Under the pieces are notes generated by a model, which was not told where the DNA came from, made no database searches, and was given only the letters and a program-made list of their open reading frames with translations. This document shows positions 13,300 through 64,000 of a DNA stretch of 64,000 nucleotides, in pieces. Origin of the DNA: Minisyncoccota bacterium (lineage in GTDB: Bacteria > Patescibacteriota > Minisyncoccia > Phycocordibacterales > JAGLPS01); the NCBI GenBank assembly GCA_023137185.1, contig JAGLPS010000002.1:47458-111457 (forward strand), written 5' to 3'. The position numbers and the translations under genes were made by a program. How positions within the stretch are numbered: the stretch's first letter is position 1; every line of letters begins with the position of its first letter.

Positions 13300-14571
13300 A
13301 TGAAAGAGCTTGTACGAAAAATCAGTCTAATCTTTAGCGATTCAACACTTCGAGGTCGTATGCTGTTTACGCTTGTTGGTCTAATTATATTTCGGGTGCT
13401 TTCTTCAATTCCAGTTCCCGGAGTTGACGCACTTAGGCTTGAAAGCTTTTTTGCAGGAAATGATTTCTTGGGTTTTTTGAATATATTTTCGGGAGGCGGT
13501 CTTTCCAATCTCTCTTTGGTAATGCTTGGAGTCGGTCCCTACATTACCGCTTCAATTATTATGCAGCTTCTTACTATTATGTCGCCTCGTCTCAAAGCGA
13601 TGTATCAGGAGGAGGGGGAGGCAGGAAGGAGAAAATTTGCCCAGTACTCGCGTATATTAACCGTCCCACTTGCTCTGTTGCAATCATTTGCCTTTCTTAA
13701 TCTTTTGCAGAGCAATGAAGTTCTTAAATCGCTTACCTCCTTTGAAATGATGACAAATATACTTGTTGTGACTGTGGGTTCTGTGCTTCTTATGTGGATT
13801 GGAGAACTGATTACCGAGTTTGGTATTGGAAATGGAGTTTCCCTTCTTATTTTTGCTGGTATAGTTTCAGGTCTTCCGCAAATTCTTGGACAACTTTTGT
13901 TTACATTCGATCCGTCACAGATTCCAACCTATCTTGCGCTTTCATTTTTCATTCTTGTTGTTGTGGCGGCTGTTGTAGTGATTACAGAGGCGGAGCGTCC
14001 GATTCCGATTACATATGCGAAACGCGTCCGTGGAATGAGAGTCTACGGGGGGCTTTCGACGTATCTTCCGCTTCGTCTGAATCAAGCGGGAGTGATTCCG
14101 ATTATTTTCGCTCTTTCTTTTTTGCTCTTTCCGCAGATGATTGCTACATTTTTTTCCCAACTTCCTAACGATATTGTTCAAACAGTATCAAATTTTGTAA
14201 TTCAGTCTCTTAATAACCCTTGGGTGTATGGTTTTCTTTACTTTATCTTAGTCTTTTTCTTTACCTATTTTTATACTGCGCTTACTTTTGATCCCAGTAC
14301 GACAGCAACCAATCTCCAGAAGAGTGGCGCGTTTATTCCCGGTGTTCGCCCTGGTGTTCCAACATCTGAATATATCGGGAAAATTCTTACTCGTCTTACT
14401 CTTTTCGGGGCATTGTTTCTTGGTCTTATCGCGGTGCTTCCTATTGCCATTCGAGCAGTAACACATATTTCATCTCTTGCAATTGGAGGGACGGCGCTGC
14501 TCATTGTTGTTTCTGTTGTAATTGATCTCATCAAAAAAATTGACTCTCAGGTATCTCTGAGAGAATATTAA
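13300..14571 (+). CDS. secY: Protein translocase subunit SecY
   Basis: 423 aa, 10 TM helices, typical SecY motifs; downstream of rplO. Confidence 0.95.
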   Translation: MKELVRKISLIFSDSTLRGRMLFTLVGLIIFRVLSSIPVPGVDALRLESFFAGNDFLGFLNIFSGGGLSNLSLVMLGVGPYITASIIMQLLTIMSPRLKAMYQEEGEAGRRKFAQYSRILTVPLALLQSFAFLNLLQSNEVLKSLTSFEMMTNILVVTVGSVLLMWIGELITEFGIGNGVSLLIFAGIVSGLPQILGQLLFTFDPSQIPTYLALSFFILVVVAAVVVITEAERPIPITYAKRVRGMRVYGGLSTYLPLRLNQAGVIPIIFALSFLLFPQMIATFFSQLPNDIVQTVSNFVIQSLNNPWVYGFLYFILVFFFTYFYTALTFDPSTTATNLQKSGAFIPGVRPGVPTSEYIGKILTRLTLFGALFLGLIAVLPIAIRAVTHISSLAIGGTALLIVVSVVIDLIKKIDSQVSLREY

Positions 14572-17685: not shown

Positions 17686-17871
17686 TTAAGCTCCTGCCAA
17701 AAAGCGTGATTTTGCTTTGTTGTTCATTGGAAACGGACTCATTCGTTTTCTAGAAATATGTTCCTGTCCCGATCTTTTTGCATTAAAATGATTCTGACCA
17801 GGTTTGCGACCTAAAATTTTCCCTTTTTTAGTAACTTTCAATCTTTTTGTGTATGATTTCTTGGTTTTCAT
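17686..17871 (-). CDS. rpmI: 50S ribosomal protein L35
   Basis: MKTKKSYTKRLKVTKKGKILGRKPGQNH. Confidence 0.85.
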   Translation of the reverse strand: MKTKKSYTKRLKVTKKGKILGRKPGQNHFNAKRSGQEHISRKRMSPFPMNNKAKSRFLAGA

Positions 17872-18010
17872 CCTATTAGAAATAGGAAACCTCTGGGTTT
17901 CCGTCAGTATTGTTAAAACTGGTAAGTAATCGACTCATAAAGTGATATTGTAAAGCGTGTCTTAAGTTCATAACGTTGTGACCTGCCTGCGGTAGGCAGG
18001 CTTCTAACGG
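17872..18010 (-). promoter_or_regulatory. Conserved promoter + leader module (copy 2), filling the infC-rpmI intergenic region and ending at the rpmI ATG
   Basis: The reverse complement is ~90% identical to 55580-55720, including the palindrome CCTGCCTACCGCAGGCAGG, TTACAAT, ATGAGTCGA and the GGAAACC....GGTTTCC hairpin. Confidence 0.55.
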
Positions 18011-18016
18011 GACGCT

Positions 18017-25988: not shown

Positions 25989-26001
25989 AAAAATTTTTCT
26001 G

Positions 26002-26075
26002 TGCGAGTACCAGGACTCGAACCTGGAACCGCGGAGGTATAAGCTCCGTGCTCTAACCAATTGAGCTATACTCGC
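26002..26075 (-). tRNA. tRNA-Ile, anticodon UAU (decodes AUA)
   Basis: The minus strand reads GCGAGTA-TA-GCTC..GAGC-A-CGGAG-CTTATAC-CTCCG-CGGTT-CCAGG-TTCGAGT-CCTGG-TACTCGC-A, a full cloverleaf; the anticodon loop CUUAUAC gives UAU. Confidence 0.8.
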
Positions 26076-36719: not shown

Positions 36720-37937
36720 TCAGGGGTTAATAATAGTAGTAAAAGTAATATCGCCCGAATAAGACCCTGATTGTTGGGTTGTTGGGACTTTTAAATAATA
36801 ATTAACTGTGTTTAGCGCGCTTCCTCCGCCAGAATCATCACTGGAATTACCAATCTGAGTAACATTGGTTGAACTAGCAACCCCAGCCCATAAAGTATTG
36901 GCATTATCAGCGTAATCATCCACGCTGCCCCACCAATCTGACGCAAGAAAAGAAGCAGTGCCACTTGCTGTCATTACACGAAAAGCAAGAACATCATTAC
37001 TGTTATCTAAAGAAGATATACGCACAGCATTTCCGGCAGACGATGTAGCTGCGCCGGCAGTCCATTCTAACTGATCAGTAATTCCTACAGAAGCGTTTGT
37101 AGTTAAATCCATTACAGTATTAGAGGGTCCTTGGTCGTTTCCGTAAATAGTCACATTCCATCCACTGGCAGAGTTTGTGTTCACATCTATAGTGCTGGTA
37201 GCGAAAACGGCAACCCCCGGAGTAACAATCGGAAAAGTATCAGTAGAAACAACCGCAGTAAGGGTTTCAGCTGGGGGGCTATAGTGCACGGTTATTTGTA
37301 TTTGGTCCACCCAAATATCAGCCTTAGCGCCAACTGCCATAGCCGCAAAAACCAACCCAAATCCACTGCTTTCTATTTCAGCTTCTGTCCATGTTGTGTT
37401 CCATTTCTCGTCAACCCCGCCATAAGTTGCAGCAGTAACAGAAGCTGGCCAGACAGTTGTTGTGTCTGCATTATCATCACTGCCAGCAACTGGTGTTCCA
37501 GCGCTTTTTGTTAGCTGAAGATGGTAATCTTTTCCATCGGCTCCACCTAAACTTCTTCTCGAAATTGATACTACAATTCCGTCAATGGTTGAATTAGTTG
37601 GAAGGTCAAAACCAAAATTAGAAAGGACTATCGTATAGCTTTTATTGCCGTCATCAAAACTGGGAGACGTAATATAAATTTCACTGCCATCCGCTGATAG
37701 CAAATCTGCTTGAACATCCGCACCCTCAAAAGCCCAAGCGATATCATCGCAATCAGCATAACCCCCGCCGTCTTTTGTGGACGCAGCAGTCCCCGCAGTC
37801 TTAGCCTGAGTCTCAGCAAAAACTCGTTCAGTTTTTGGTGGAATTGACGGATTCTTCCAAATCTGCGGCCACCCGGAAAAAATCCAGGCAAGAATCAAAA
37901 TAAAAACTAATAAAAATTTTCCAGATTTTCCAAACAT
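36720..37937 (-). CDS. Larger surface protein with the same WxL-like C-terminal domain and a distinct N-terminal domain
   Basis: SGWNVTIYGNDQ ... TLWAGVAS ... YSGDITFTTIINP; N-terminal TM/signal. Confidence 0.4.
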   Translation of the reverse strand: MFGKSGKFLLVFILILAWIFSGWPQIWKNPSIPPKTERVFAETQAKTAGTAASTKDGGGYADCDDIAWAFEGADVQADLLSADGSEIYITSPSFDDGNKSYTIVLSNFGFDLPTNSTIDGIVVSISRRSLGGADGKDYHLQLTKSAGTPVAGSDDNADTTTVWPASVTAATYGGVDEKWNTTWTEAEIESSGFGLVFAAMAVGAKADIWVDQIQITVHYSPPAETLTAVVSTDTFPIVTPGVAVFATSTIDVNTNSASGWNVTIYGNDQGPSNTVMDLTTNASVGITDQLEWTAGAATSSAGNAVRISSLDNSNDVLAFRVMTASGTASFLASDWWGSVDDYADNANTLWAGVASSTNVTQIGNSSDDSGGGSALNTVNYYLKVPTTQQSGSYSGDITFTTIINP

Positions 37938-38456
37938 TACTTTTATTATACAAAAAAACACCGAAACGAAAAACTAAAAAACTTGTAAATTGCCTACAAA
38001 TTGCTAACTAGCTCATTCTTTACTCTATGAGCTACGACGGTTAGATATTTTGGTAAGTTTTACAACAATCTCACATTCTTAAGAATGTGAGATTGTTGTA
38101 TTAAAATCCTCGAGCGTGCACTTGTTGTGGACTTGAAAAACCTCGGTGTAGCGCGCAAATGGCATTCGGTGTCGCTTTGCGACGCTCCACATCTCGCCGT
38201 TTCGGGCGAAAGTGCAACTTGGCGGAGGAGGTGGGATTCGGTCACAAATAATTTTCTGCTGAAAATTTTCGCGACTCTTACAGAGTCTGTACACCTTTTG
38301 GACAATTCAGAAATTGTCTCAAAAGGTCTTGCGAAATGCTCCCAGCATTTCTCACCCGACTCGGCGCCGTCGCGCCTCCGTCTTTCGAATCCCTCTCTCA
38401 CAACCAAAGCTGCTAATTTTTGATACCTATATAAACGGTATCAAAATTATCAGTGC

Positions 38457-38542
38457 GGAGGAGGTGGGATTCGAACCCACGAGGGGATTTCTCCCCTAAC
38501 GCCTTAGCAGAGCGCCACTTTCGACCACTCAGTCACTCCTCC
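38457..38542 (-). tRNA. tRNA-Ser, anticodon GCU (long variable arm)
   Basis: The minus strand reads GGAGGAG..GCGCT-CTGCTAA-GGCGT, variable arm TAGGGGAGAAATCCCCTCG, T-arm GGGTTCGAATCCC, acceptor CTCCTCC-G. Confidence 0.85.
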
Positions 38543-38619
38543 TTGTGGTGAAACTTTATCATATTTACTCCCTTTTTCCCATTACTTTTACATATTTTTT
38601 CTAAAAACTAAAAGCTATT

Positions 38620-39279
38620 TCAATGCGCGATGGTATACGCGATTACCTTTCGCGCTCCTGCCTTTTTAAGTGTTTTCGTTGCTTCTTTCAATGTGCTGCC
38701 GGTGGTAACAATGTCATCTATAAGGATTATATTTCTTCCTTTGATTCGTGACGCGGTTTTTACTCCAAAAGAACCCACAGGATTTTTAATACGCTCGCTT
38801 TTGTTTTTTGTTTTTGTTTGGGGGATTGTATTTTTTGTTTTTATTAAAATATGTTTTTGATATTCAAAAATTTTGTTGATGTCGAAAATCATAATCGACT
38901 CTGCCAGAATTTCCGTCTGGTTAAAGCCGCGCTCTTTTTTGTGTTTGTTTGATGAGGGTATCGGAATAAGCAGGGGAGAAGAGAAATTTTGAAAAGAAAG
39001 AATGTCTTCTACATCGTCTAGAATAATCGTATAAAGAATCTCTCCAAATTTCTTCGCAATTTTTTTATTCCCCCTGTACTTCACTTCTCGGATAGCCTCT
39101 CGCGCTAATGGGTCCGTGTATCTAAAGACCGTTTTACACTGGGGAAGCTCGGTAAAACAGCGCTCCATTTTTTCGAGATACTCTTCCGCTGTCATTTTCT
39201 CAATTTTTTGTATAGATGCGGGTTGGGGAAACGTATAGTCAAGAAAAATTTCTCCTAATTTCTTCACAAAAATAAACAT
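38620..39279 (-). CDS. comF: ComF-family phosphoribosyltransferase-domain protein
   Basis: C-terminal PRTase motif NIILIDDIVTTGSTL; next to the T4P locus. Confidence 0.7.
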   Translation of the reverse strand: MFIFVKKLGEIFLDYTFPQPASIQKIEKMTAEEYLEKMERCFTELPQCKTVFRYTDPLAREAIREVKYRGNKKIAKKFGEILYTIILDDVEDILSFQNFSSPLLIPIPSSNKHKKERGFNQTEILAESIMIFDINKIFEYQKHILIKTKNTIPQTKTKNKSERIKNPVGSFGVKTASRIKGRNIILIDDIVTTGSTLKEATKTLKKAGARKVIAYTIAH

Positions 39280-55579: not shown

Positions 55580-55720
55580 TCCCGTTAGAAGCCTGCCTAC
55601 CGCAGGCAGGTCATAACGTTATGAACTTAAAACACGCATTACAATATCACTTTATGAGTCGACTACTTAACAATTTTAATAACAATGACGGAAACCTCTG
55701 GGTTTCTTACTTCTAATGGG
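55580..55720 (+). promoter_or_regulatory. Conserved promoter + leader module (copy 3), ending exactly at the gatA ATG
   Basis: CCCGTTAGAAGCCTGCCTACCGCAGGCAGGTCATAACGTTATGAACTT..TTACAAT..ATGAGTCGA..GGAAACCTCTGGGTTTC..TTCTAATGGG-ATG. Confidence 0.55.
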
Positions 55721-57145
55721 ATGGCAATTGATCTGACAGATTTAACAATTGATAAAGCTCACAAGCATTTAAAAAGTAGGGATTTTTCTGCTATGGAACT
55801 TGCTGATGCGTATCTTGAAGTTATAGAAAAAAAGAATCCTGAAATCAATGCGTATCTTGAAATTTATGATGATGTAAAAAAGCAGGCGCAACAAGCGCAA
55901 GAAATATTTGAATCAAAGGAAGAAAATATCGTAACAGGTATCCCTCTTGCGATAAAAGACAACATTCTCATAAAGGGAAAGCAGGCGAGTGCGGCATCAA
56001 AAATTCTTGAAGGATATACTGCCACTTACACGGCAACAGCTGCTCATAAACTCATTGAAAAGGGGGCAGTATTTTTAGGACGCGCTAATATGGACGAATT
56101 TGCTATGGGTAGTTCCACTGAAACTTCCGCTTTTGGTGTAACAAAGAATCCGCGAGATTTGAGTAGGGTTCCGGGTGGCTCGTCTGGAGGTTCTGCTGCG
56201 GCAGTCGCAATGGGAGGCGCGCTCGCGGCGCTTGGTTCTGACACAGGAGGGTCTATAAGGCAGCCTGCAAGTTTCTGCGGGTGTATCGGACTTAAACCAA
56301 CCTATGGCACAGTGTCTCGTTACGGTCTTATGGCTATGGGTTCGTCTTTAGATGTTATTGGTCCGATTACAAAAACAGTTGCCGACGCGGAGATTATTTT
56401 TAAAGCAATTTGTGGAAAAGACAAATATGACAGCACATCGATTTCTGGAAGTATAAATGCTGTTTCTCCTAAAAAAGAATATATTATCGGAATTCCGCGC
56501 GAAATTCTAGAGATAGAGGGAATTGACAAAGATGTTAAAGAGAATTTTGAGGCATCAATAAAAAAATTTGAATCTCTTGGATTTAAAACTAAAGAAATAT
56601 CTCTCTCTAACATTGCGTACGCCCTTGCTTCATATTATATTTTGATGCCGGCTGAAGTATCTTCGAATCTTGCTCGTTTTGATGGAGTGAAATATGGACT
56701 TCACAAAAAAGGAGCGAATCTTTTGGAAGATTATCTCAACACACGAGGCGAAGGATTTGGTGTAGAAGCTCGTCGTCGCATTCTTCTTGGAACCTACGTG
56801 CTTTCAGCGGGATATTACGATGCGTATTATAATAAAGCTAATGATGTCCGCCGATTGATTGCCGATGACTTTGAAAATGTGTTCAAAAACGTTGACATTA
56901 TTATTACTCCCACGACCCCAACTCCCGCGTTTAAAATAGGGGAAAAAGTGAATGACCCTCTTTCTATGTATCTTGCCGATATATTTACGGTAACAGCAAA
57001 TATTGTCGGAATTCCCGCTCTCTCAATTCCGTCTGGCGCCGTTATTCGTGAGGAGAAAGAGCTTCCACTTGGTCTCCAATTGATGGCGCCACATAGAGGG
57101 GAACATTCACTTTTTATGGTAGGGAGTCAGTTTTTAGGAGAGTAA
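55721..57145 (+). CDS. gatA: Glutamyl-tRNA(Gln) amidotransferase subunit A; true start at the ATG 55721 (MAIDLTDL), not the track start 55685
   Basis: Amidase signature GGSSGGSAAAVA, Ser-cisSer-Lys triad. Confidence 0.9.
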   Translation: MAIDLTDLTIDKAHKHLKSRDFSAMELADAYLEVIEKKNPEINAYLEIYDDVKKQAQQAQEIFESKEENIVTGIPLAIKDNILIKGKQASAASKILEGYTATYTATAAHKLIEKGAVFLGRANMDEFAMGSSTETSAFGVTKNPRDLSRVPGGSSGGSAAAVAMGGALAALGSDTGGSIRQPASFCGCIGLKPTYGTVSRYGLMAMGSSLDVIGPITKTVADAEIIFKAICGKDKYDSTSISGSINAVSPKKEYIIGIPREILEIEGIDKDVKENFEASIKKFESLGFKTKEISLSNIAYALASYYILMPAEVSSNLARFDGVKYGLHKKGANLLEDYLNTRGEGFGVEARRRILLGTYVLSAGYYDAYYNKANDVRRLIADDFENVFKNVDIIITPTTPTPAFKIGEKVNDPLSMYLADIFTVTANIVGIPALSIPSGAVIREEKELPLGLQLMAPHRGEHSLFMVGSQFLGE

Positions 57146-57149
57146 AAAT

Positions 57150-57815
57150 ATGGCAGAAGAAAAAAAACCAACAATTGCAAAGGATCCGGTCGTAAGCGCG
57201 ATTGACGTCGGAGCGGGGCTTCTTTTGGTTATTGTTTTGGCTGACGCGCTTCGCAGAATTTTAAAAAGTATTATATCTAAAGTTAACCCTAATTTTCTCA
57301 GTCGCACCTACTGGGTAGAAATGTTTATTGATATGTCTCCTGTCTTAAAAATTGTTTCTGTAACTCTTTCAGTTATCTTTCTTGTTGGAATATTTTATTT
57401 GACAAGAAAGATAAATATGATTAGAGCGGAAGAAATAGCGCTTCTATATCCGAAAGGCAGGGGAGAGTCTGCTGCTACAGACACAGAGTCTCAAAAAGTG
57501 GAAAATAAGAAATGGGAAAAAGTGCTTGCGCGCGTGGAATCTAGCAATCCAAGCGATTGGAAAGTCGCTATTTTGGAAGCAGACATTATGCTTGAAGAAA
57601 TTCTTGAAAAAATGGGTTATCACGGGGATACAATGAGCGATAGACTCAAGCAGGTTGAAAAGAGCGACTTTACGACTATTGATCTGGCGTGGGAAGCGCA
57701 TAAAATAAGAAACGCGATTGCTCATGAGGGGGGAGATTTTCTTTTAAACGAGAGAGAGACACGCAGGGTTATTGACCTATATCGACAAGTATTTGAAGAA
57801 TTTTACTATATCTAG
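57150..57815 (+). CDS. Membrane-anchored protein with a C-terminal HEPN-like domain (Rx4H motif)
   Basis: Two N-terminal TM helices; C-terminal ...IDLAWEAHKIRNAIAHEG carries R-X4-H, as in HEPN/DUF4145-type nuclease folds. Confidence 0.4.
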   Translation: MAEEKKPTIAKDPVVSAIDVGAGLLLVIVLADALRRILKSIISKVNPNFLSRTYWVEMFIDMSPVLKIVSVTLSVIFLVGIFYLTRKINMIRAEEIALLYPKGRGESAATDTESQKVENKKWEKVLARVESSNPSDWKVAILEADIMLEEILEKMGYHGDTMSDRLKQVEKSDFTTIDLAWEAHKIRNAIAHEGGDFLLNERETRRVIDLYRQVFEEFYYI

Positions 57816-57922
57816 CGCTATTCTCGCGTCTTGTTTGACTCTTATATGAAATTCTGGTATTCTAAATATCAGAAAAGTTAAACCCGTTCCGTATAACGCG
57901 GACAAAGTAAAGGAGGGGAAGT

Positions 57923-58252
57923 GTGAAAAATAGGCCTTATTCCGGACAGTATCCAAAATCAAAGACAATGAAAGGTGATTGCGACGGGCATCTGATAATT
58001 GACCTTTGCGGCCGCAAGGAGAACGTTTTCTCTCGGCAGGCTGCCGAAGAGATTGTTGCGCAAGCGTTTTTTGACGCGAAAATCACAGGCCATGATTTCC
58101 ATCGTTTAATTAAGGAAATTGAAAAAACTCCCTATCTGAAAGGTTCAAGAAGACTCCATCTTTTGGATATTGTGATGGACCTTTCCCGACTAAAACCACA
58201 ACTGCGCAGTGTGCAGAAATTGGTGGTCCAAGAAGAAATGGTAATAGCATAA
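57923..58252 (+). CDS. Hypothetical protein
   Basis: ORF only; no motif recognised. Confidence 0.3.
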   Translation: MKNRPYSGQYPKSKTMKGDCDGHLIIDLCGRKENVFSRQAAEEIVAQAFFDAKITGHDFHRLIKEIEKTPYLKGSRRLHLLDIVMDLSRLKPQLRSVQKLVVQEEMVIA

Positions 58253-58388
58253 ACTCTCCTCACAAAAATCTTAGCCCCCTATTTTTATAGGGGGCTTTTT
58301 GACTTTGTTGACAAATTTTTTAAAAAAAGATATATAAGTTTAAGAAGCACGTTTGTTAATAATAATATCTTAAAGAAAGGAGGTAATA

Positions 58389-58703
58389 ATGACTGGGTCT
58401 ATTGTTAAATTTGCTCCATACTTTCTTTCCTGCAAGAAAAACAAAAGATTTGGTTTCCTTGTTTTTTCTCCTATTGAAAAGGTCCCAGTTTTTTCAAAGG
58501 AAACAGCTCGTATGTTTATAAACCGCGCTATAAAAGAGGGGATTATCAGAAAGGAAGAAAGTTTGGAACTTCTGCGTCAAATTGAAAATTCAAAAATGGC
58601 AGAAGAAATAAATGTAGAAAGCTGTCTTGCTGTTCTTGGTAGGTTAGAAGAAGTGTGCGAGAAAGATTTCTCAAGCTCTCTCTACATACCCTCTTTAAAT
58701 TAA
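58389..58703 (+). CDS. Hypothetical protein
   Basis: ORF only; RBS AAGGAGG 8 nt upstream. Confidence 0.35.
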   Translation: MTGSIVKFAPYFLSCKKNKRFGFLVFSPIEKVPVFSKETARMFINRAIKEGIIRKEESLELLRQIENSKMAEEINVESCLAVLGRLEEVCEKDFSSSLYIPSLN

Positions 58704-58904
58704 AGCAAAGCCCGACTTTTTTGTCGGGCTTTTTACTATGCGCGAGCGACGTGGCTTGGTTAAAAATGCTATATGATTAACTGTACACAGCCTTGCTTTA
58801 TACGCGCTGATGTATAATAATGTTTCGCATCGCTTATATTTGGTGAGAAAGTGTAGACTTTTCCATAAAACGTTAAAAGTGCTTTATGGAGATAAGATTG
58901 TATT

Positions 58905-58978
58905 GCGGGAGTAGCTCAACTGGTTAGAGCATCCGCCTGTCACGCGGAAGGTTGCGGGTTCGAGTCCCGTCTCTCGCG
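58905..58978 (+). tRNA. tRNA-Asp, anticodon GUC
   Basis: GCGGGAG-TA-GCTC..GAGC-ATCCGC-CTGTCAC-GCGGA..GCGGG-TTCGAGT-CCCGT-CTCTCGC-G; anticodon loop CUGUCAC. Confidence 0.9.
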
Positions 58979-58985
58979 CAAACGC

Positions 58986-59020
58986 TAAAACAGGATACCT
59001 TTTTGGTATCCTGTTTGCGT
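58986..59020 (+). terminator. Hairpin AAACAGGATACC-TTTTT-GGTATCCTGTTT after tRNA-Asp
   Basis: 12-bp perfect stem. Confidence 0.6.
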
Positions 59021-59149
59021 TATTTGGCGAGAGAAGAAACTAAACTGCTTTAGTTTCGTCGGGACTTGAAAAGCATTTTGATGTTTTGTCAGTAGACAAA
59101 ACCAAAATGCTGGGGTCGCGGAGTGAGCGTGCGACGGCACGCGAGCGAG

Positions 59150-59174
59150 GTGACCGAGTCCCGTCTCTCGCGCA
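59150..59174 (+). repeat. Direct repeat of the tRNA-Asp 3' end (copy 2), att-like
   Basis: GTGACCGAGTCCCGTCTCTCGCGCA; the last 19 nt are identical to tRNA-Asp 58960-58978. Confidence 0.7.
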
Positions 59175-59346
59175 AAAGTAAAAATGCTTAGATTTTCTAA
59201 TCTAGGCATTTTTACTTTCTAGTGTGATTTGTGGCGGGACTCGAACGACGGAGATGCCATTTCAGAAAGGTTTGGGAAATCTTTCTGAAATGAATCCTGC
59301 GTCGAGTCGGGGTCGGCAGTACTTTTCGCGAAGCGAATTAGTAACT

Positions 59347-59371
59347 GTGACCGAGTCCCGTCTCTCGCGCA
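59347..59371 (+). repeat. Direct repeat of the tRNA-Asp 3' end (copy 3), att-like
   Basis: GTGACCGAGTCCCGTCTCTCGCGCA, identical to copy 2; spacing of 194 and 197 bp between the three copies. Confidence 0.7.
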
Positions 59372-59523
59372 TACGATTTTATACTAAAAAATCTCTCAAT
59401 GGGAGGGGTTTTCTATCTCTAACCGAGAGGAAACTTTTATTGACATATTTATACAAATATGTTATTATTAATACTAGAATGCTTTGGTATTTTGAAAAAC
59501 CCTTCAAAAAAAAGGAGTTGAAA

Positions 59524-59919
59524 ATGACTGAATCTAGACAAGCAGATGCAGAAAAAATCAAAAAAGATTTTGAGGAAATAGCAGTTGGTTTGGAAAAGAT
59601 ATTTTTATCTGATTATGAATCCTGTGCAAGAGTTATCACAAAGGTAAGAGAGCTTCTTATAAATGAACCACACTGCTTTGAAAGAAGAATTGAGCAGCAC
59701 CAATCATTTGCTGATTTAAACAAAAAAACGTGGAAAATGATGATTGAGCGTCTCCCCGAAGAGCAGCGTTTAGCGTTTGAATGCGCGCTAGAAGAAGATT
59801 TAAGAGAACTCTTCTACATTCACTATATCGCTGTATATCTAGAAACAGACGAAGGGAAAAAACCACTGGAGACAGATTCAGCAATAGGAAAGGAGGAATT
59901 AAATGGAAAAATACAGTGA
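59524..59919 (+). CDS. Hypothetical protein (first gene of a two-gene cassette)
   Basis: RBS AAAAAAGGAG before the ATG at 59524; the track ORF 59224 extends spuriously upstream across att-like repeat copy 3. Confidence 0.45.
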   Translation: MTESRQADAEKIKKDFEEIAVGLEKIFLSDYESCARVITKVRELLINEPHCFERRIEQHQSFADLNKKTWKMMIERLPEEQRLAFECALEEDLRELFYIHYIAVYLETDEGKKPLETDSAIGKEELNGKIQ

Positions 59920-60256
59920 CCCACTTAAAAGAGTTAAGCCACCCTTTATTATCATGCAAAGAGACATTAATAATGTTTCTGAAGACTGGAAAACGCATAT
60001 CGAGAAAGTAAGGGTTATTGATGCCCAAGCCATCTATCCTGACGATGAAACAGGATTACCTATTTCTGGTGAGGACTATGTGGAGAAATTACTGGAAAAT
60101 GGGGAAGGTTGGCATCTTGAAGGCATATTTCTTGTAAATAAAATAACGAATGGCGTACAGGAACAAGTGGTTCAAATGGTCTTAGTACGTAACGGGCTCC
60201 TAAATAAGAAGGTACAAGAAGCTTTTTGTAAAATAGCGAAGATTGAAGGTAAATAG
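59903..60256 (+). CDS. Hypothetical protein (second cassette gene; overlaps the previous gene by 17 nt)
   Basis: RBS GGAAAGGAGG upstream; translationally coupled; followed by a terminator. Confidence 0.45.
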   Translation: MEKYSDPLKRVKPPFIIMQRDINNVSEDWKTHIEKVRVIDAQAIYPDDETGLPISGEDYVEKLLENGEGWHLEGIFLVNKITNGVQEQVVQMVLVRNGLLNKKVQEAFCKIAKIEGK

Positions 60257-60265
60257 AAAACCGAC

Positions 60266-60298
60266 AAAGCCCAAGCGGAGATATCGCTTGGGCTTTTT
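60266..60298 (+). terminator. Rho-independent terminator AAAGCCCAAGCG-N7-CGCTTGGGCTTTTT
   Basis: 12-bp stem plus U-tract. Confidence 0.7.
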
Positions 60299-60541
60299 AT
60301 ATATATGGAATATAAATTTTCTCTCTTCTTTCAATCCCAATTCTAACGTCGTCCACTAGTCCGCGCAAAATACAAAAAGAGTTGGATTTGTTTCGACTCT
60401 TTTTAGACCTGTGGACACGCCGTGTCCACAGGTACAGATCTAAGTCTAGAATAGATACAATTTTGATCAAAATCCATACATTTCAGTATAATATAACCTT
60501 GAGAGTAAGATATCGCCTACTCATCTCCACCTTATTTCACT

Positions 60542-60616
60542 TGGTGCCGACGGCAGGGATCGAACCTGCGACCGCTTCTTTATGAGTGAAGTGCTCTACC
60601 ACTGAGCTACGTCGGC
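60542..60616 (-). tRNA. tRNA with CAU anticodon (elongator Met or lysidine-type Ile2), CCA encoded
   Basis: The minus strand reads GCCGACG-TA-GCTC..GAGC-A-CTTCA-CTCATAA-AGAAG-CGGTC-GCAGG-TTCGATC-CCTGC-CGTCGGC-A-CCA. Confidence 0.8.
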
Positions 60617-60722
60617 ATATGTAACAATTCATTTTTAGATTACTACACTTACAGAGCAAAATCTACCATAAAAAAGAGGCGCGATTGACGCGCCTCTTCC
60701 TAAATGCATTTCCATTTAGGGT

Positions 60723-61241
60723 TCATTTTTTCTTTTCGTAAACCAGAAAGGGTTCACCTTTAAGCATGTTGGGGGAATCGCAAGCGACAAGGTAAACATT
60801 CCCACTATACGTTTCTAACCCTTTTTGCTCGATTATTAACATAAAAGACTCTTCGAACCCTCCATGAAGATAGTCTCCAAGCTCGTTATATATTTTTGGA
60901 AGACTGTATTCATAATCAACCAAGAATAAAAACGAGTCTTTGAAAGGAGAAAATTTCTTAAGGCGGCGCAGGTATTGATTGTTGAAATTTTCATACAGAA
61001 AAGTTACCCATTCTTGTCTTTCCATACATTGAAGCTTTATAAGGCGGCTTTTTAAACCTCTAGAAAAATAAGTTTGAACTTCGTAATGACTTTTCTGTGA
61101 ATTGTCTGCCTCCTTCGCTTTTTGGGAAACTTCTTCCTTTAGACGTTTTGATGGCTGCTTCAGGTATTTGACAATGGACTCAATAAACCCGCGGTGTTCT
61201 TCGCTCACTTCAGAAAATATTTCTATTGTATCTCTACCCAT
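60723..61241 (-). CDS. Hypothetical protein
   Basis: ORF only. Confidence 0.35.
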   Translation of the reverse strand: MGRDTIEIFSEVSEEHRGFIESIVKYLKQPSKRLKEEVSQKAKEADNSQKSHYEVQTYFSRGLKSRLIKLQCMERQEWVTFLYENFNNQYLRRLKKFSPFKDSFLFLVDYEYSLPKIYNELGDYLHGGFEESFMLIIEQKGLETYSGNVYLVACDSPNMLKGEPFLVYEKKK

Positions 61242-61563
61242 TATTAAGACCCCTTTCTCTTTATGATTAGAACGATTTCTCTAAACAAAAGGGTATCGTA
61301 TAAGAGATTTTTGTCAATAATTATCTACTCGTATAGTTCAATATTTTTCTGAAAGATAATCTTTAAAAAGCTTTTATCTTTTGTGTTTTCAAGAACGTAG
61401 ACGTAATACATACAATTATTATACATTGCCCCGTAAAATTCACCTTGTTCATCACGGGGCTCACGTTAAAATGAAAAATCTGCCAAAATGGCAGATTTTC
61501 ATCACATGTCAGTCCACTTATATGGCCTGCCACGTGGAGAATTGCAAAGCAATTCTCTTTACG

Positions 61564-61637
61564 TGGTTGCGGGGCCTGGATTTGAACCAGGGACTGAAGG
61601 TTATGAGCCTTCTGAGTTACCGCTACTCTACCCCGCG
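61564..61637 (-). tRNA. Initiator tRNA-fMet (CAU), CCA encoded
   Basis: The minus strand reads CGCGGGG..; C1 x A72 mismatch, A11:U24 pair, anticodon loop CUCAUAA, T-loop TTCAAAT. Only two of the three G:C pairs in the anticodon stem. Confidence 0.7.
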
Positions 61638-61802
61638 GCTTACCCGTATTTCACACAGAGGAAATTCAAGGCAATTATGCTCAACACTATATCACGGCAA
61701 AAATGTTGGCACAAGTTTGTTGCACATTACCATAACGTCAGTAATACTCTAGCCTTTTAGAAAAGCAAAAGGCGCGGGGTAATAAGTAAAAACACATTAC
61801 AC

Positions 61803-61872
61803 CACATTTTGAGGCTTTTATTTGGAAGCCGAGCTTCCAAGTTAGAGCTTCCAAGTTACTTTGTGGACTTTC
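61803..61872 (+). other. Second copy of the TTACACCACA-hairpin-CTTCCAAGTT element
   Basis: ATTACACCACATTTTGAGG..TTGGAAGCCGAGCTTCCAAGTTAGAGCTTCCAAGTTAC; compare 3797-3858. Confidence 0.4.
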
Positions 61873-62047
61873 AGTTTTTGACTCTGGTGGGGTATACTCC
61901 CACACCTGTTTTGACATTGTGTTTTTACTGTCCCATTCTGTGCCGATTAGCTAAATATGTTTGTGCCATTTGTATAGACAGATGATAAAATTAAAAAAAC
62001 ACAATGCGATAATGCCAAAACAGGTGTATGGGGGTATACTTTAATAA

Positions 62048-62461
62048 ATGGTGAAAAAAACTCTCATTCAATTTTTTGCGGCAATAGCCTTGCTCACGCT
62101 CTTTTTCTTTTTTGCGTATTTGTCGCGTACACCCGTAGAAGAGAATATACAGAAACGAACACACCAAGAAGCTTCTGATTTCATAGTTTCTAATACTGAT
62201 GACGAGCGAATCGCGCCAAACGAGGAAATCTATGGGTTTGCTATCGGTAATTTCCATAAGGCGTATTATGCTTCCAACTTTTTAGAGGTAGACCAAATCC
62301 ACGACATTATTGCTGGAGAAAACGTGATTCTCCGTCGAACTGGCAGTGGAGATGTTGTAATGATTCATTCGGAAACAGGGGAGGTATTTATTCCAGTAAA
62401 AACAGTGTGGTCGTCATGGGTTACTCTTTATCCGGATACGTTAATTTACGAGAATGAGTAG
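62048..62461 (+). CDS. Hypothetical secreted protein
   Basis: N-terminal signal peptide MVKKTLIQFFAAIALLTLFFFFAYLS. Confidence 0.4.
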   Translation: MVKKTLIQFFAAIALLTLFFFFAYLSRTPVEENIQKRTHQEASDFIVSNTDDERIAPNEEIYGFAIGNFHKAYYASNFLEVDQIHDIIAGENVILRRTGSGDVVMIHSETGEVFIPVKTVWSSWVTLYPDTLIYENE

Positions 62462-62626
62462 TGAATTTTTCAGAGCGCTTTTGTTTTCGGTTGTTCTCGC
62501 GTTTTTTATCGCGAAGTTGGAATTTCTCATTATTTTGTGTAATTAAAGTTTGAAAAAGATTCTTTGATGTATTATCATTCGGTTTTGATGTCACTGTAGT
62601 TATTTTGATATAAGTTGAAGCAATAA

Positions 62627-62699
62627 GCCGATGTAGCTCAGTTGGTAGAGCAACTCCATGGTAAGGAGTAGGTCACCAGTTCAAATCTGGTCATCGGCT
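62627..62699 (+). tRNA. tRNA-Thr, anticodon GGU
   Basis: GCCGATG-TA-GCTC..GAGC-A-ACTCC-ATGGTAA-GGAGT-AGGTC-ACCAG-TTCAAAT-CTGGT-CATCGGC-T. Confidence 0.9.
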
Positions 62700-62790
62700 C
62701 TGGTTGTGCCATCCTAATTCAGTTGGTAAAGGTAAAATAATCTGGGAGATTATTTTACGGATCGGGTTTTAGCAGTTTTTTCTGGAATAT

Positions 62791-62863
62791 GCCCACGTAG
62801 CTCAATTGGTAGAGCAACGGTATCGTAAACCGTAGGTTGTCGGTTCAATTCCGACCGTGGGCT
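62791..62863 (+). tRNA. tRNA-Thr, anticodon CGU
   Basis: GCCCACG-TA-GCTC..GAGC-A-ACGGT-ATCGTAA-ACCGT-AGGTT-GTCGG-TTCAATT-CCGAC-CGTGGGC-T; flanked by 19-bp inverted repeats GTTTTAGCAGTTTTTTCTGG / CTAGAAAAAACTGCTAAAAC. Confidence 0.9.
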
Positions 62864-62991
62864 CTAGAAAAAACTGCTAAAACGCTAATGTGTAGGTCGT
62901 GGGTTCAAGTTTGGGGAGGGGGCGGCTCTACATAAAACATTTTTAAACAGCTTGGAGGCGAAGCTCCCAAGTAGGTAGCAACTTATGAGTT

Positions 62992-63879
62992 ATGAATGAT
63001 ATGAACAATAATATTTCCGAAAAAATAAAAGAACTAGAGGAGCAAATGTCTCTCCCCGATTTTTGGAATAACAAAACAAAAGCTCAAGAAACTATTAAAG
63101 AGATTCAAAATCTAAAAGATGAAGCTGAGGGAATAGGGAAATATGACAAGGGAGACGCAGTTATGACTCTGTTTGCTGGCGCGGGAGGGGACGATGCCGA
63201 AGATTTTGCGGCAATGCTTTTTTCAATGTACGAAAAATTTGTTGCAAGAAAAAACTGGCGCTATACTGTGCTTCATCAGAATCAAAATGACCACGGAGGA
63301 TTTCGAAATGTTACTGTTGAAATAGAAGGAAAAAATGCCTATGGAATACTCAAAAATGAATCGGGGGTGCATCGCCTTGTCCGCATTTCTCCGTTTAACG
63401 CGAAAAAACTTCGCCACACGTCGTTCGCGCTTGTTGAAGTTATTCCGAAGTTTGAAGAAGTGGACGCAAAAAGTATTGAAATTCCAGAAGATGAGCTCAA
63501 ATTTGAGTTTGCTCGTTCAAGCGGTCCGGGAGGACAGAATGTTAATAAGCGAGAAACAGCAGTGCGCGTGGTGCATATTCCGACCAAACTTTCTGCGCAT
63601 GTTAACTCGCAACGAAGTCAGGCGCAGAACAAGGAAAAGGCGCTTATGATTTTACGCGGGAAAATTTTCAAGGCGCTGGAGGAAGAAAGGATAAAAAAGC
63701 AGGAAGGAATGTATGTAAGCAAAACGACAGAGATTGAGTGGGGGAATCAAATTCGTTCATACGTGCTTCACCCGTACAAAATGGTAAAAGACCATCGGAC
63801 CGAAGTGGAAGTTCGCGACGTCGAAAAAGTCCTTGACGGTGAGTTGGATGAATTTTTAGAGGCTGAAAAAAACCTGTAA
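62992..63879 (+). CDS. prfB: Peptide chain release factor 2 (short form, no frameshift)
   Basis: SPF tripeptide (VRISPFNAKK) and GGQ motif (SGPGGQNVNKRETAVR); uninterrupted ORF. Confidence 0.8.
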   Translation: MNDMNNNISEKIKELEEQMSLPDFWNNKTKAQETIKEIQNLKDEAEGIGKYDKGDAVMTLFAGAGGDDAEDFAAMLFSMYEKFVARKNWRYTVLHQNQNDHGGFRNVTVEIEGKNAYGILKNESGVHRLVRISPFNAKKLRHTSFALVEVIPKFEEVDAKSIEIPEDELKFEFARSSGPGGQNVNKRETAVRVVHIPTKLSAHVNSQRSQAQNKEKALMILRGKIFKALEEERIKKQEGMYVSKTTEIEWGNQIRSYVLHPYKMVKDHRTEVEVRDVEKVLDGELDEFLEAEKNL

Positions 63880-64000
63880 TACATAGCGATTAGCTGTTAG
63901 CTTTCAGCTTTTAGTAATGACTAAAAGTGATATTTTGAGTTACCTTTCCTCTAAGGTATACTTTATAAGTGATTTATAGTTGTTAAGGGGTATTTTTTCG

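Follow-up and report, generated by a model that had tools for sequence, protein, structure and literature searches.

Probable RtT-like structured modules that copy tRNA 3′ ends behind tRNA genes of Patescibacteria

Introduction

The subject of this work is a 64,000-nucleotide (nt) segment of the chromosome of an uncultivated member of the Patescibacteria (Minisyncoccota bacterium, GenBank assembly GCA_023137185.1, contig JAGLPS010000002.1, positions 47,458 to 111,457), referred to here as the window and numbered from its first letter, and within it a short array in which the 3′ end of the tRNA-Asp gene occurs three times. We show that one of the three copies belongs to tRNA-Asp itself and that the other two are the 3′ legs of non-coding modules of about 145–150 nt standing in tandem, called here unit 1 and unit 2. 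The units probably belong to a family of structured modules which copy the end of the tRNA they follow, resemble RtT RNA in design and would be transcribed as trailer RNA rather than being attachment (att) sites, a view which we hold with rather more belief than doubt. The family is apparently undescribed so far and was found neither in Rfam 15 nor in literature searches.

Results

Two structured modules between three copies of the tRNA-Asp 3′ end

The + strand contains exactly three copies of the 19-mer GAGTCCCGTCTCTCGCGCA (58962, 59156 and 59353), spaced by 194 and 197 nt; its expectation in 100 shuffles was 0. The second and third copies extend to an identical 25-mer (59150–59174 and 59347–59371) which has no exact match in the genome-contig collection. 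Identity to tRNA-Asp is exact over 22 nt in the second copy and 20 nt in the third, from C56 of the T-loop through the discriminator plus CA. A preliminary description of this locus, made from the sequence alone, had reported three tRNA-Asp 3′-end copies with a period of about 196 bp, the shared 25-mer and a hairpin after each copy, all of which we confirm, the hairpins lying at 58988–59016, 59175–59218 and 59392–59406. The features of the array are as follows, the repeat copies being numbered from 0 for the end of the tRNA itself:

58739–58756 (+): partial, left-leg-like inverted copy of the tRNA-Asp 3′ end (83% complementary to 58963–58980)
58905–58979 (+): intact tRNA-Asp, anticodon GTC (71 bits to the Rfam tRNA model; also found by ARAGORN)
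58961–58980 (+): repeat copy 0, tRNA-Asp from C56 to the discriminator plus CA
58988–59016 (+): terminator-like hairpin after tRNA-Asp (terminator scoring)
59026–59174 (+): unit 1, type A-like (free energy −76.8 kcal/mol, z −8.65)
59027–59034 (+): acceptor-like 5′ strand of unit 1, GCGAGAGA
59036–59057 (+): CUGC-loop hairpin of unit 1
59060–59067 (+): T-stem/T-loop complement of unit 1, CGGGACUU
59072–59111 (+): extra hairpin of unit 1
59114–59155 (+): tandem G-A hairpin of unit 1, closed by GGUCGC/GUGACC
59155–59174 (+): right leg of unit 1 (repeat copy 1)
59175–59218 (+): A/T-rich hairpin after unit 1 (20-nt arms, 95% complementary)
59233–59371 (+): unit 2, type B (free energy −65.9 kcal/mol, z −6.12)
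59233–59245 (+): left leg of unit 2, GGCGGGACUCGAA
59246–59309 (+): P2 of unit 2, motif GAC-G-GA...GA-GUC (paired 7/7)
59311–59352 (+): P3 of unit 2 (GGUCG.../...UGACC)
59352–59371 (+): right leg of unit 2 (repeat copy 2)
59392–59406 (+): weak terminator-like hairpin after unit 2

Each of the two spacers of about 175 nt holds a structured module and not gene debris. The plan of a module is a 5′ leg complementary to the tRNA, a conserved core, and a 3′ leg which copies the tRNA from C56. The 5′ leg complements the T-loop and the 3′ strand of the T-stem and, in unit 1, the acceptor 3′ strand too, while the 3′ leg repeats the tRNA without a mismatch from C56 up to and including the discriminator and CA. 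The core consists of a hairpin with a tandem G-A internal loop and a second hairpin closed by GGUCGC/GUGACC. In the predicted folds of both units the legs pair, and the closing helix thus carries the sequence of the tRNA-Asp acceptor/T-stem duplex.

The inverted copies of tRNA-Asp segments (59027–59034 with 59060–59067, 59233–59245 and, in part, 58739–58756) had been overlooked in the preliminary description, as had the promoter of the downstream operon and the tRNA-Ser unit described below. The partial copy lies directly 3′ of the terminator of the upstream gene and its score was reached by none of 300 shuffles; no such upstream copy occurs before the other tRNAs tested, and it is specific to the window. 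The hairpin at 58988–59016 is the tip of an imperfect palindrome whose 37-nt arms are supplied by the 3′ end of tRNA-Asp and by unit 1 with its left leg.

Relatives were sampled as 80 loci fetched around gatA homologues, a tRNA sample thus biased to the neighbourhood of gatA. These loci, which like the other loci and contigs compared are labelled with L-numbers in what follows, are from distant organisms whose GatA proteins are at most 67% identical to that of the window. The 5′ module of unit 1 is also found in units of L043, L010, L019, L009, L305, L048 and L321.

Support for the RNA structure

The P1/P2/P3 structure was drawn by hand on an eight-sequence MAFFT alignment (A6; in alignments A1, A2 and A4, also made with MAFFT, the tRNA-Ser unit described below is out of register). 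In this alignment 91.6% of the cells are paired, against 74% after shuffling and 27–44% when the partners are slid, and both sides have changed in 15 of the 23 pairs, which none of 500 shuffles reached. For P2, a parser that picks the best-scoring register counted 89 canonical pairs out of 91 across 13 units, a result matched by 0 of 5000 column shuffles. The C-stem triplets of P2 vary among the units (GAC/GUC, ACC/GGU, AGC/GCU and GCC/GGC) and the inner stem has many variants. Covariation in these sequences supports the proposed structure of the core. The tRNA-sense strand folds more stably than its complement in all 14 of the 14 units, and a G-U pair of P3 is kept in seven of the eight sequences, which points to the tRNA-sense strand.

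A covariance model, R1, was built from the eight aligned sequences; its E-values are rough. Outside its seed it recovered the tRNA-Ser unit of the window, both L019 units, the tRNA-Tyr unit of L258, the tRNA-Asp and tRNA-Met units of L048, the tRNA-Arg unit of L321 and a remnant in L329. It scores unit 2 at 87.5 bits, but unit 2 is a seed sequence of the model. The other weak matches comprise two chance matches in coding DNA, one in L012 (E 0.3) and a core with a non-tRNA stem in L030. The units match no Rfam family.

A family behind at least eight tRNA species

In the fetched loci, one or two copies of the tRNA's own 3′ end lie 130–500 nt downstream of 10 of the 23 tRNA-Asp genes, and such a copy is carried by 2 of 64 tRNA-Met genes and 1 of 6 tRNA-Ser genes. 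The copies are always downstream and never upstream, and their sequence varies by genome. One more unit, degenerate, stands behind tRNA-Asp of L048. Loose patterns of the core were also run on viral and metagenome contigs; among the matches listed, most were due to chance, in GC-rich coding DNA, and the genuine units were those of L305, L258, L282, L321 and L012. The family stands behind at least eight tRNA species (Asp, Ser, Met, Trp, Tyr, Gly, Leu and Arg) and the legs always fit the local tRNA. Units behind tRNAs other than tRNA-Asp are:

window, 38222–38399 (−): tRNA-Ser (GCU) unit
L009, L048 and probably L012: tRNA-Met units
L305 and L258: tRNA-Trp units
L258: tRNA-Tyr unit
L282: tRNA-Gly unit
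L321: tRNA-Leu unit
L321: tRNA-Arg unit

Exact 3′ copies are 12–25 nt long across the family and begin at or near C56. Type B units have the order short left leg, AAA, GAC-G-GA-[hairpin]-GA-GUC, GGG and GGUCGC...GUGACC. In type A units the T-complement is preceded by an additional acceptor-like 5′ strand and by a hairpin whose loop is usually CUGC. The two types often share one tRNA and can occur in either order: A then B in the window and in L019, B then A in L305 and L010.

The second member of the family in the window is a type B unit (38222–38399, − strand) behind tRNA-Ser(GCU) (38455–38542), which R1 finds at 44.4 bits (E 8.7e-10) as a non-seed sequence. Its legs fit tRNA-Ser, with a 19-nt exact copy from C56, and a hairpin lies between the tRNA and the unit. 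Its 3′ copy is followed by CCA (GCCAAG), while the tRNA-Ser gene itself reads GCACTG. Between P2 and P3 it carries an extra insertion (38289–38333, − strand; CGCAAGACCUUUUGAGA...CCAAAAGGUGUAC), homologous to a free-standing structured element in L305 (about 1600–1680, − strand) and without an Rfam match.

Two further observations were made in the relatives. In L030 (1708–1793, − strand) there is a type B-like core, with a G-GA...GA hairpin and a P3-like hairpin (R1 E 0.02), which is closed by a long non-tRNA stem and has no tRNA nearby; the family core may also occur outside tRNA contexts. In L009 (about 14380–14523) a stretch of about 47 nt, GGTTAGTTAAGCAAATATTGCAGAGGGTAGCTGTTTT, is repeated in tandem some 2.5 times directly upstream of tRNA-Asp.

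Cores are shared between tRNA loci and legs are local

The nearest neighbours of P3 regions ignore the identity of the tRNA. That of the window tRNA-Ser unit has similarities of 0.88 to the L329 remnant, 0.82 to the tRNA-Trp unit of L305 and 0.82 to the tRNA-Asp unit of L039, and the L012 unit has 0.84 to the tRNA-Gly unit of L282. Within genomes, similarity is 0.82 between the tRNA-Asp and tRNA-Met units of L048 and 0.75 between the tRNA-Met and tRNA-Asp units of L009. The type A CUGC hairpin is found behind both tRNA-Asp and tRNA-Trp. Such similarity of cores across tRNAs suggests that a core can pass from one tRNA locus to another, by movement or exchange, while the legs remain those of the locus. 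In L009 and L039 the tandem units are nearly identical, which indicates recent local duplication. Gene conversion could be anchored at the conserved junctions derived from the T-loop, UUCGAA on the left and GUGACCGA on the right.

The neighbouring ORF1–ORF2 operon

Downstream of unit 2 the following features are found:

59440–59468 (+): sigma-70-type promoter (TTGACA, 17-nt spacer, TG-extended TATTAT; 11 of 12 consensus positions)
59524–59919 (+): ORF1, 131 amino acids (aa), AGGAG-type ribosome-binding site
59903–60256 (+): ORF2, 117 aa, AGGAG-type ribosome-binding site
60266–60296 (+): bidirectional intrinsic terminator of the operon
60542–60616 (−): tRNA-Met (CAU), from the tRNA scan

The succession of two overlapping small genes with strong ribosome-binding sites, a terminator and a CAU tRNA was correctly given in the preliminary description; the genes overlap by 17 nt, and the tRNA, which belongs to a rearranged ancestral Met-Met-Asp-Thr-Thr cluster, is on the minus strand.

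ORF1 is a member of a rare protein family, which numbers about a dozen sequences of some 110 aa. Its structure model is a three-helix bundle (pLDDT 81) for which a fold search gave no structural neighbour, and weak Sigma70_r4_2 matches were obtained for three of eight family members. The homologues lie in Patescibacteria-like chromosomal contexts with no flanking tRNA-end copies. The closest (L329, 71% identity) is without ORF2 and has a degenerate type B remnant downstream. ORF2 is an orphan gene which matched only itself among 5.8 billion proteins and its structure model (pLDDT 55) is unusable. Neither protein matches a toxin-antitoxin, defence, immunity or phage family in Pfam, NCBIfam, PADLOC or PHROGs, the family searches yielding one sub-threshold Csx1 match (E 0.003). 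Sequence searches of the PDB and a fold search with the ORF1 model were empty. We infer that ORF1–ORF2 is an independent neighbouring operon and not cargo.

A possible fourth repeat lies after ORF2 (60361–60376, CGCGCAAAATACAAA, followed by a hairpin). It resembles the end of repeat copy 1 plus trailer and is marginal, its score being reached in 10 of 500 shuffles. Contigs of this strain from several samples are identical in the array region and show no population variation. In one short metagenome contig, L004, the final 100 nt (1445–1544) differ from the window, the remainder being identical; this end could be a chimera made in assembly or a variant within ORF2.

Other features of the window

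Profile scans of the window identify gatC, gatA, DNA ligase, prfB and type IV pilus genes among others. A 145-nt repeat occurs in two copies, about 90% identical, at the gatC–gatA junction (55580–55723, + strand) and just downstream of infC (17869–18012, − strand). It is closed by a 12-bp stem (UCCCGUUAGAAG/CUUCUAAUGGGA), shows compensatory changes in an internal hairpin, and may be another small structured or mobile element. ARAGORN finds a tRNA-Ile with the anticodon UAU, which is uncommon in bacteria (26001–26075, − strand). The prfB open reading frame (release factor RF2; 62992–63879) fits its profile only from about residue 49, which fits the usual programmed +1 frameshift upstream.

Discussion

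How the units could work and what speaks against this

If the units are RtT-like trailer modules, they would be read through from the tRNA promoter, and the tRNA-like closing helix could let RNase P, RNase Z, the CCA-adding enzyme or RNase III excise them. The conserved G-A motif may be a protein-binding site. Unequal recombination between the repeated 3′ ends would lengthen and shorten the arrays, and cores would be exchanged or moved between tRNA loci.

Several observations weigh against this interpretation. A terminator-like hairpin stands right after tRNA-Asp and there is no promoter ahead of the units, so that their transcription depends on read-through. R1 does not detect unit 1, which was assigned to the family on architecture only, through its type A 5′ module and its G-A hairpin. 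The structure itself was hand-drawn and P2 parsed in the best register. Presence is patchy (about half of the tRNA-Asp loci), copy number is variable, and some copies are decayed (L048 tRNA-Asp, L329, and a nested or truncated unit in L019), a picture more in keeping with dispensable or selfish DNA than with an RNA gene that is essential. Local duplication alone fails to explain how legs are re-matched and how homologous cores come to lie behind different tRNAs. Finally, the Rfam RtT model (RF00391) gives no match at E values up to 10 in 57500–64000 or 37900–38700, and scores 133–137 bits on E. coli as a positive control; the link to RtT is accordingly one of shared design, an analogy rather than a demonstrated homology.

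Alternative explanations

The preliminary description had interpreted the locus as attL/attR scars left by serial integration, at tRNA-Asp, of larger elements since decayed, with the two small genes as surviving cargo, for example a toxin-antitoxin or immunity pair. This model is largely refuted and we consider it very improbable. What survives of it is that the repeats are real and that there is extra DNA compared with compact relatives. The direct repeats span the T-loop to the tRNA 3′ end, as do att sites of the T-loop type. The comparison with relatives proposed in the preliminary description does show empty sites, in the form of a compact Met-Met-Asp-Thr-Thr cluster (L014, where tRNA-Asp is 84 nt from tRNA-Thr, and L015, L021, L031 and L040). 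The weak fourth copy after ORF2 and the degenerate unit downstream of the ORF1 homologue in L329 would also fit. The spacers, however, are conserved structured modules and not decayed genes. None of 24 tRNA-Asp loci has an island-sized (kilobase) insert bounded by the repeats, all extra copies lying within about 500 nt, and the reported lack of an integrase is borne out: the roughly 40 window open reading frames include no integrase, transposase or reverse transcriptase (Pfam, NCBIfam). Against the cargo claim, the gene pair has its own promoter and terminator, lacks a convincing downstream repeat and any toxin-antitoxin, defence or phage family match, and has ORF1 homologues without flanking tRNA-end copies. 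Also highly unlikely, at about the same low level or slightly below it, is that the units are functionless, decaying tandem duplicates of tRNA-Asp, pseudogenes which keep the 3′ end. The tyrT repeats are classically explained in this way, by a tRNA duplicated in tandem and subsequent unequal crossing-over. Unit 1 does keep an acceptor-like 5′ strand, a hairpin at the place of the D/anticodon arms, a T-stem 5′ strand and the full 3′ end, and this goes part of the way to the tRNA remnants which the preliminary description had named as speaking against att scars, but neither ARAGORN nor the Rfam tRNA model detects a cloverleaf. The same non-tRNA core with compensatory changes recurs in many genomes, behind at least eight tRNA species; the legs have kept their pairing and the 3′ copy its exact sequence, while nothing else of a tRNA body is present. 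The CUGC loop common to a tRNA-Trp unit indicates that the hairpin of unit 1 is not derived from the local tRNA.

A serious rival, which we nevertheless judge unlikely, is that small selfish elements insert serially at the tRNA 3′ end. The units would then be miniature, non-autonomous mobile elements targeting the T-loop and 3′ end of tRNA genes: a folded single strand, RNA or single-stranded DNA (ssDNA), would mimic the target duplex, a recombinase or nuclease acting in trans would insert it and duplicate or restore the tRNA end, and the core would be needed for mobility and not for a cellular function. The folded attP hairpin of CTX phage, which mimics the dif site, offers an analogy. The patchy distribution with its empty sites fits such elements, as do the homologous cores behind different tRNAs, similar within a genome (tRNA-Asp and tRNA-Met in L048 and L009), the nested look of the L019 arrangement, the arrays mixing unit types in either order and the presence of other small inserts bounded by a tRNA-Asp end copy (L033 and L084, see below). 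The left leg moreover contains the complement of T-loop positions 54–55, missing from the right leg, and this complement covaries with the unusual UG of tRNA-Met in L009. Against mobility, no recombinase, transposase or reverse transcriptase adjoins any unit or is found among the roughly 40 window open reading frames scanned, nothing similar to the units was found in phage records or, among the matches listed, in viral collections, and the contigs of the strain from several samples are identical, with no insertion polymorphism. The units interleave conserved modules with target-matching segments (acceptor strand, hairpin, T strand, core, 3′ end), a pattern which a simple insertion model does not yield, and we know of no mechanism that copies a target in both direct and inverted form over 10–20 nt.

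Small inserts of another kind do occur at this site. In L033 (9112–9570) and L084 (3835–4280 in reverse-complement coordinates) tRNA-Asp is separated from a 15-nt copy of its end by an insert of 445–460 nt. The insert codes for a GIY-YIG nuclease of 85 aa (PF01541, E 2e-15) and is devoid of a left leg, a type A or B core and a group I intron. The 3′ flank of tRNA-Asp is thus an insertion hot spot in a looser sense.

A more ambitious possibility, to which we give only a minor share of belief, is that the units represent an undescribed RNA scaffold matching tRNA ends, in which a conserved three-way-junction core carries two programmable legs, one sense and one antisense to the 3′ end of the neighbouring tRNA. 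It might spread among the tRNA genes of Patescibacteria by RNA or single-strand guidance, or act on the matching tRNA as a decoy or guide for 3′-end enzymes or nucleases. If this were true, RtT of E. coli would be an isolated relic of the same principle.

In practice, such arrays will be misread as att scars or tRNA fragments when metagenome-assembled genomes are annotated, and the conserved G-A motif provides a handle for finding a partner protein.

Comparison with known systems

CIME-like arrays, in which remnants devoid of an integrase accrete in tandem, and the att sites of integrases share with the units direct repeats which bound each element and extend from the T-loop as far as the tRNA 3′ end, arrays built by repeated insertion at one tRNA, and empty sites in relatives. 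Unlike these, the inserts here measure only about 110–195 nt (445–460 nt in the GIY-YIG variant), are non-coding and are homologous from one genome to another, and the units carry an inverted copy of the target, with no integrase and no island-sized insert in the 24 loci.

Viral tRNA-like structures and elements of the mascRNA type are tRNA-like processing handles. Like such structures and minihelix mimics, the predicted fold of the units stacks an acceptor-like helix on a T-stem-like helix and ends at the discriminator, a shape that RNase P, RNase Z and the CCA-adding enzyme might in principle recognise. In contrast to them, the units have no T-loop and a three-way-junction core instead, their helix is 16–17 bp and not 12, and their sequence is that of the adjacent tRNA and not a generic one. 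The 3′ETS-leuZ of E. coli is a non-coding RNA from the 3′ external spacer of a tRNA transcript; RNAs of this type differ from the units in having no tRNA-end copy, no closing stem and no repeat array.

Other known systems were considered and set aside. A self-cleaving ribozyme, a group I intron and a tmRNA-like domain gave no Rfam or ARAGORN match. An omega-RNA of TnpB or a bridge-RNA of IS110, in which a scaffold is followed by a 3′ guide equal to the flank, found no support, as no TnpB or recombinase gene is nearby. Reverse transcription of a mature tRNA does not fit right legs which carry the genomic trailer (CA, then A or G) and not CCA, the tRNA-Ser unit (GCCA) being the sole exception.

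The closest parallel is RtT RNA (RF00391), known since 1978; Egan and Landy (1978), Rossi et al. (1981) and Boesl and Kersten (1991) are said to be the historical accounts. In E. coli K-12 three copies of the 19-nt end of tRNA-Tyr follow tyrV with an exact period of 178 bp, and one lies in the tyrT–tyrV spacer, the repeat region being annotated rttR/tpr. Within a unit, GGGGAAGGAU is complementary to AUCCUUCCCC of the copy, and the Rfam RtT consensus closes with exactly this pairing. RtT and the Patescibacteria units alike come straight after a tRNA, on its strand and in tandem (178 nt against 194 and 197 nt), and each unit ends in an exact tRNA-end copy (19 nt against 20–22 nt). In both, the tRNA-end copy and an upstream complement make the closing stem of a multi-hairpin RNA, according to predicted folds and P1 covariation for the Patescibacteria units and to the Rfam consensus structure for RtT. 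The function of RtT has been described as unknown (10.1101/2024.07.17.603846).

The two differ in that RtT is known behind one tRNA (Tyr) in enterobacteria, whereas the family described here is spread over at least eight tRNA species with the legs re-matched each time, has a conserved core of its own (the tandem G-A hairpin and the GGUCGC/GUGACC hairpin) and shows no evident small open reading frame like tpr. RtT has so far been a one-locus curiosity. The same design, structurally supported, in an unrelated and very large bacterial radiation makes the phenomenon a general one which is open to comparative study, and raises the question of how both legs come to fit each new tRNA.

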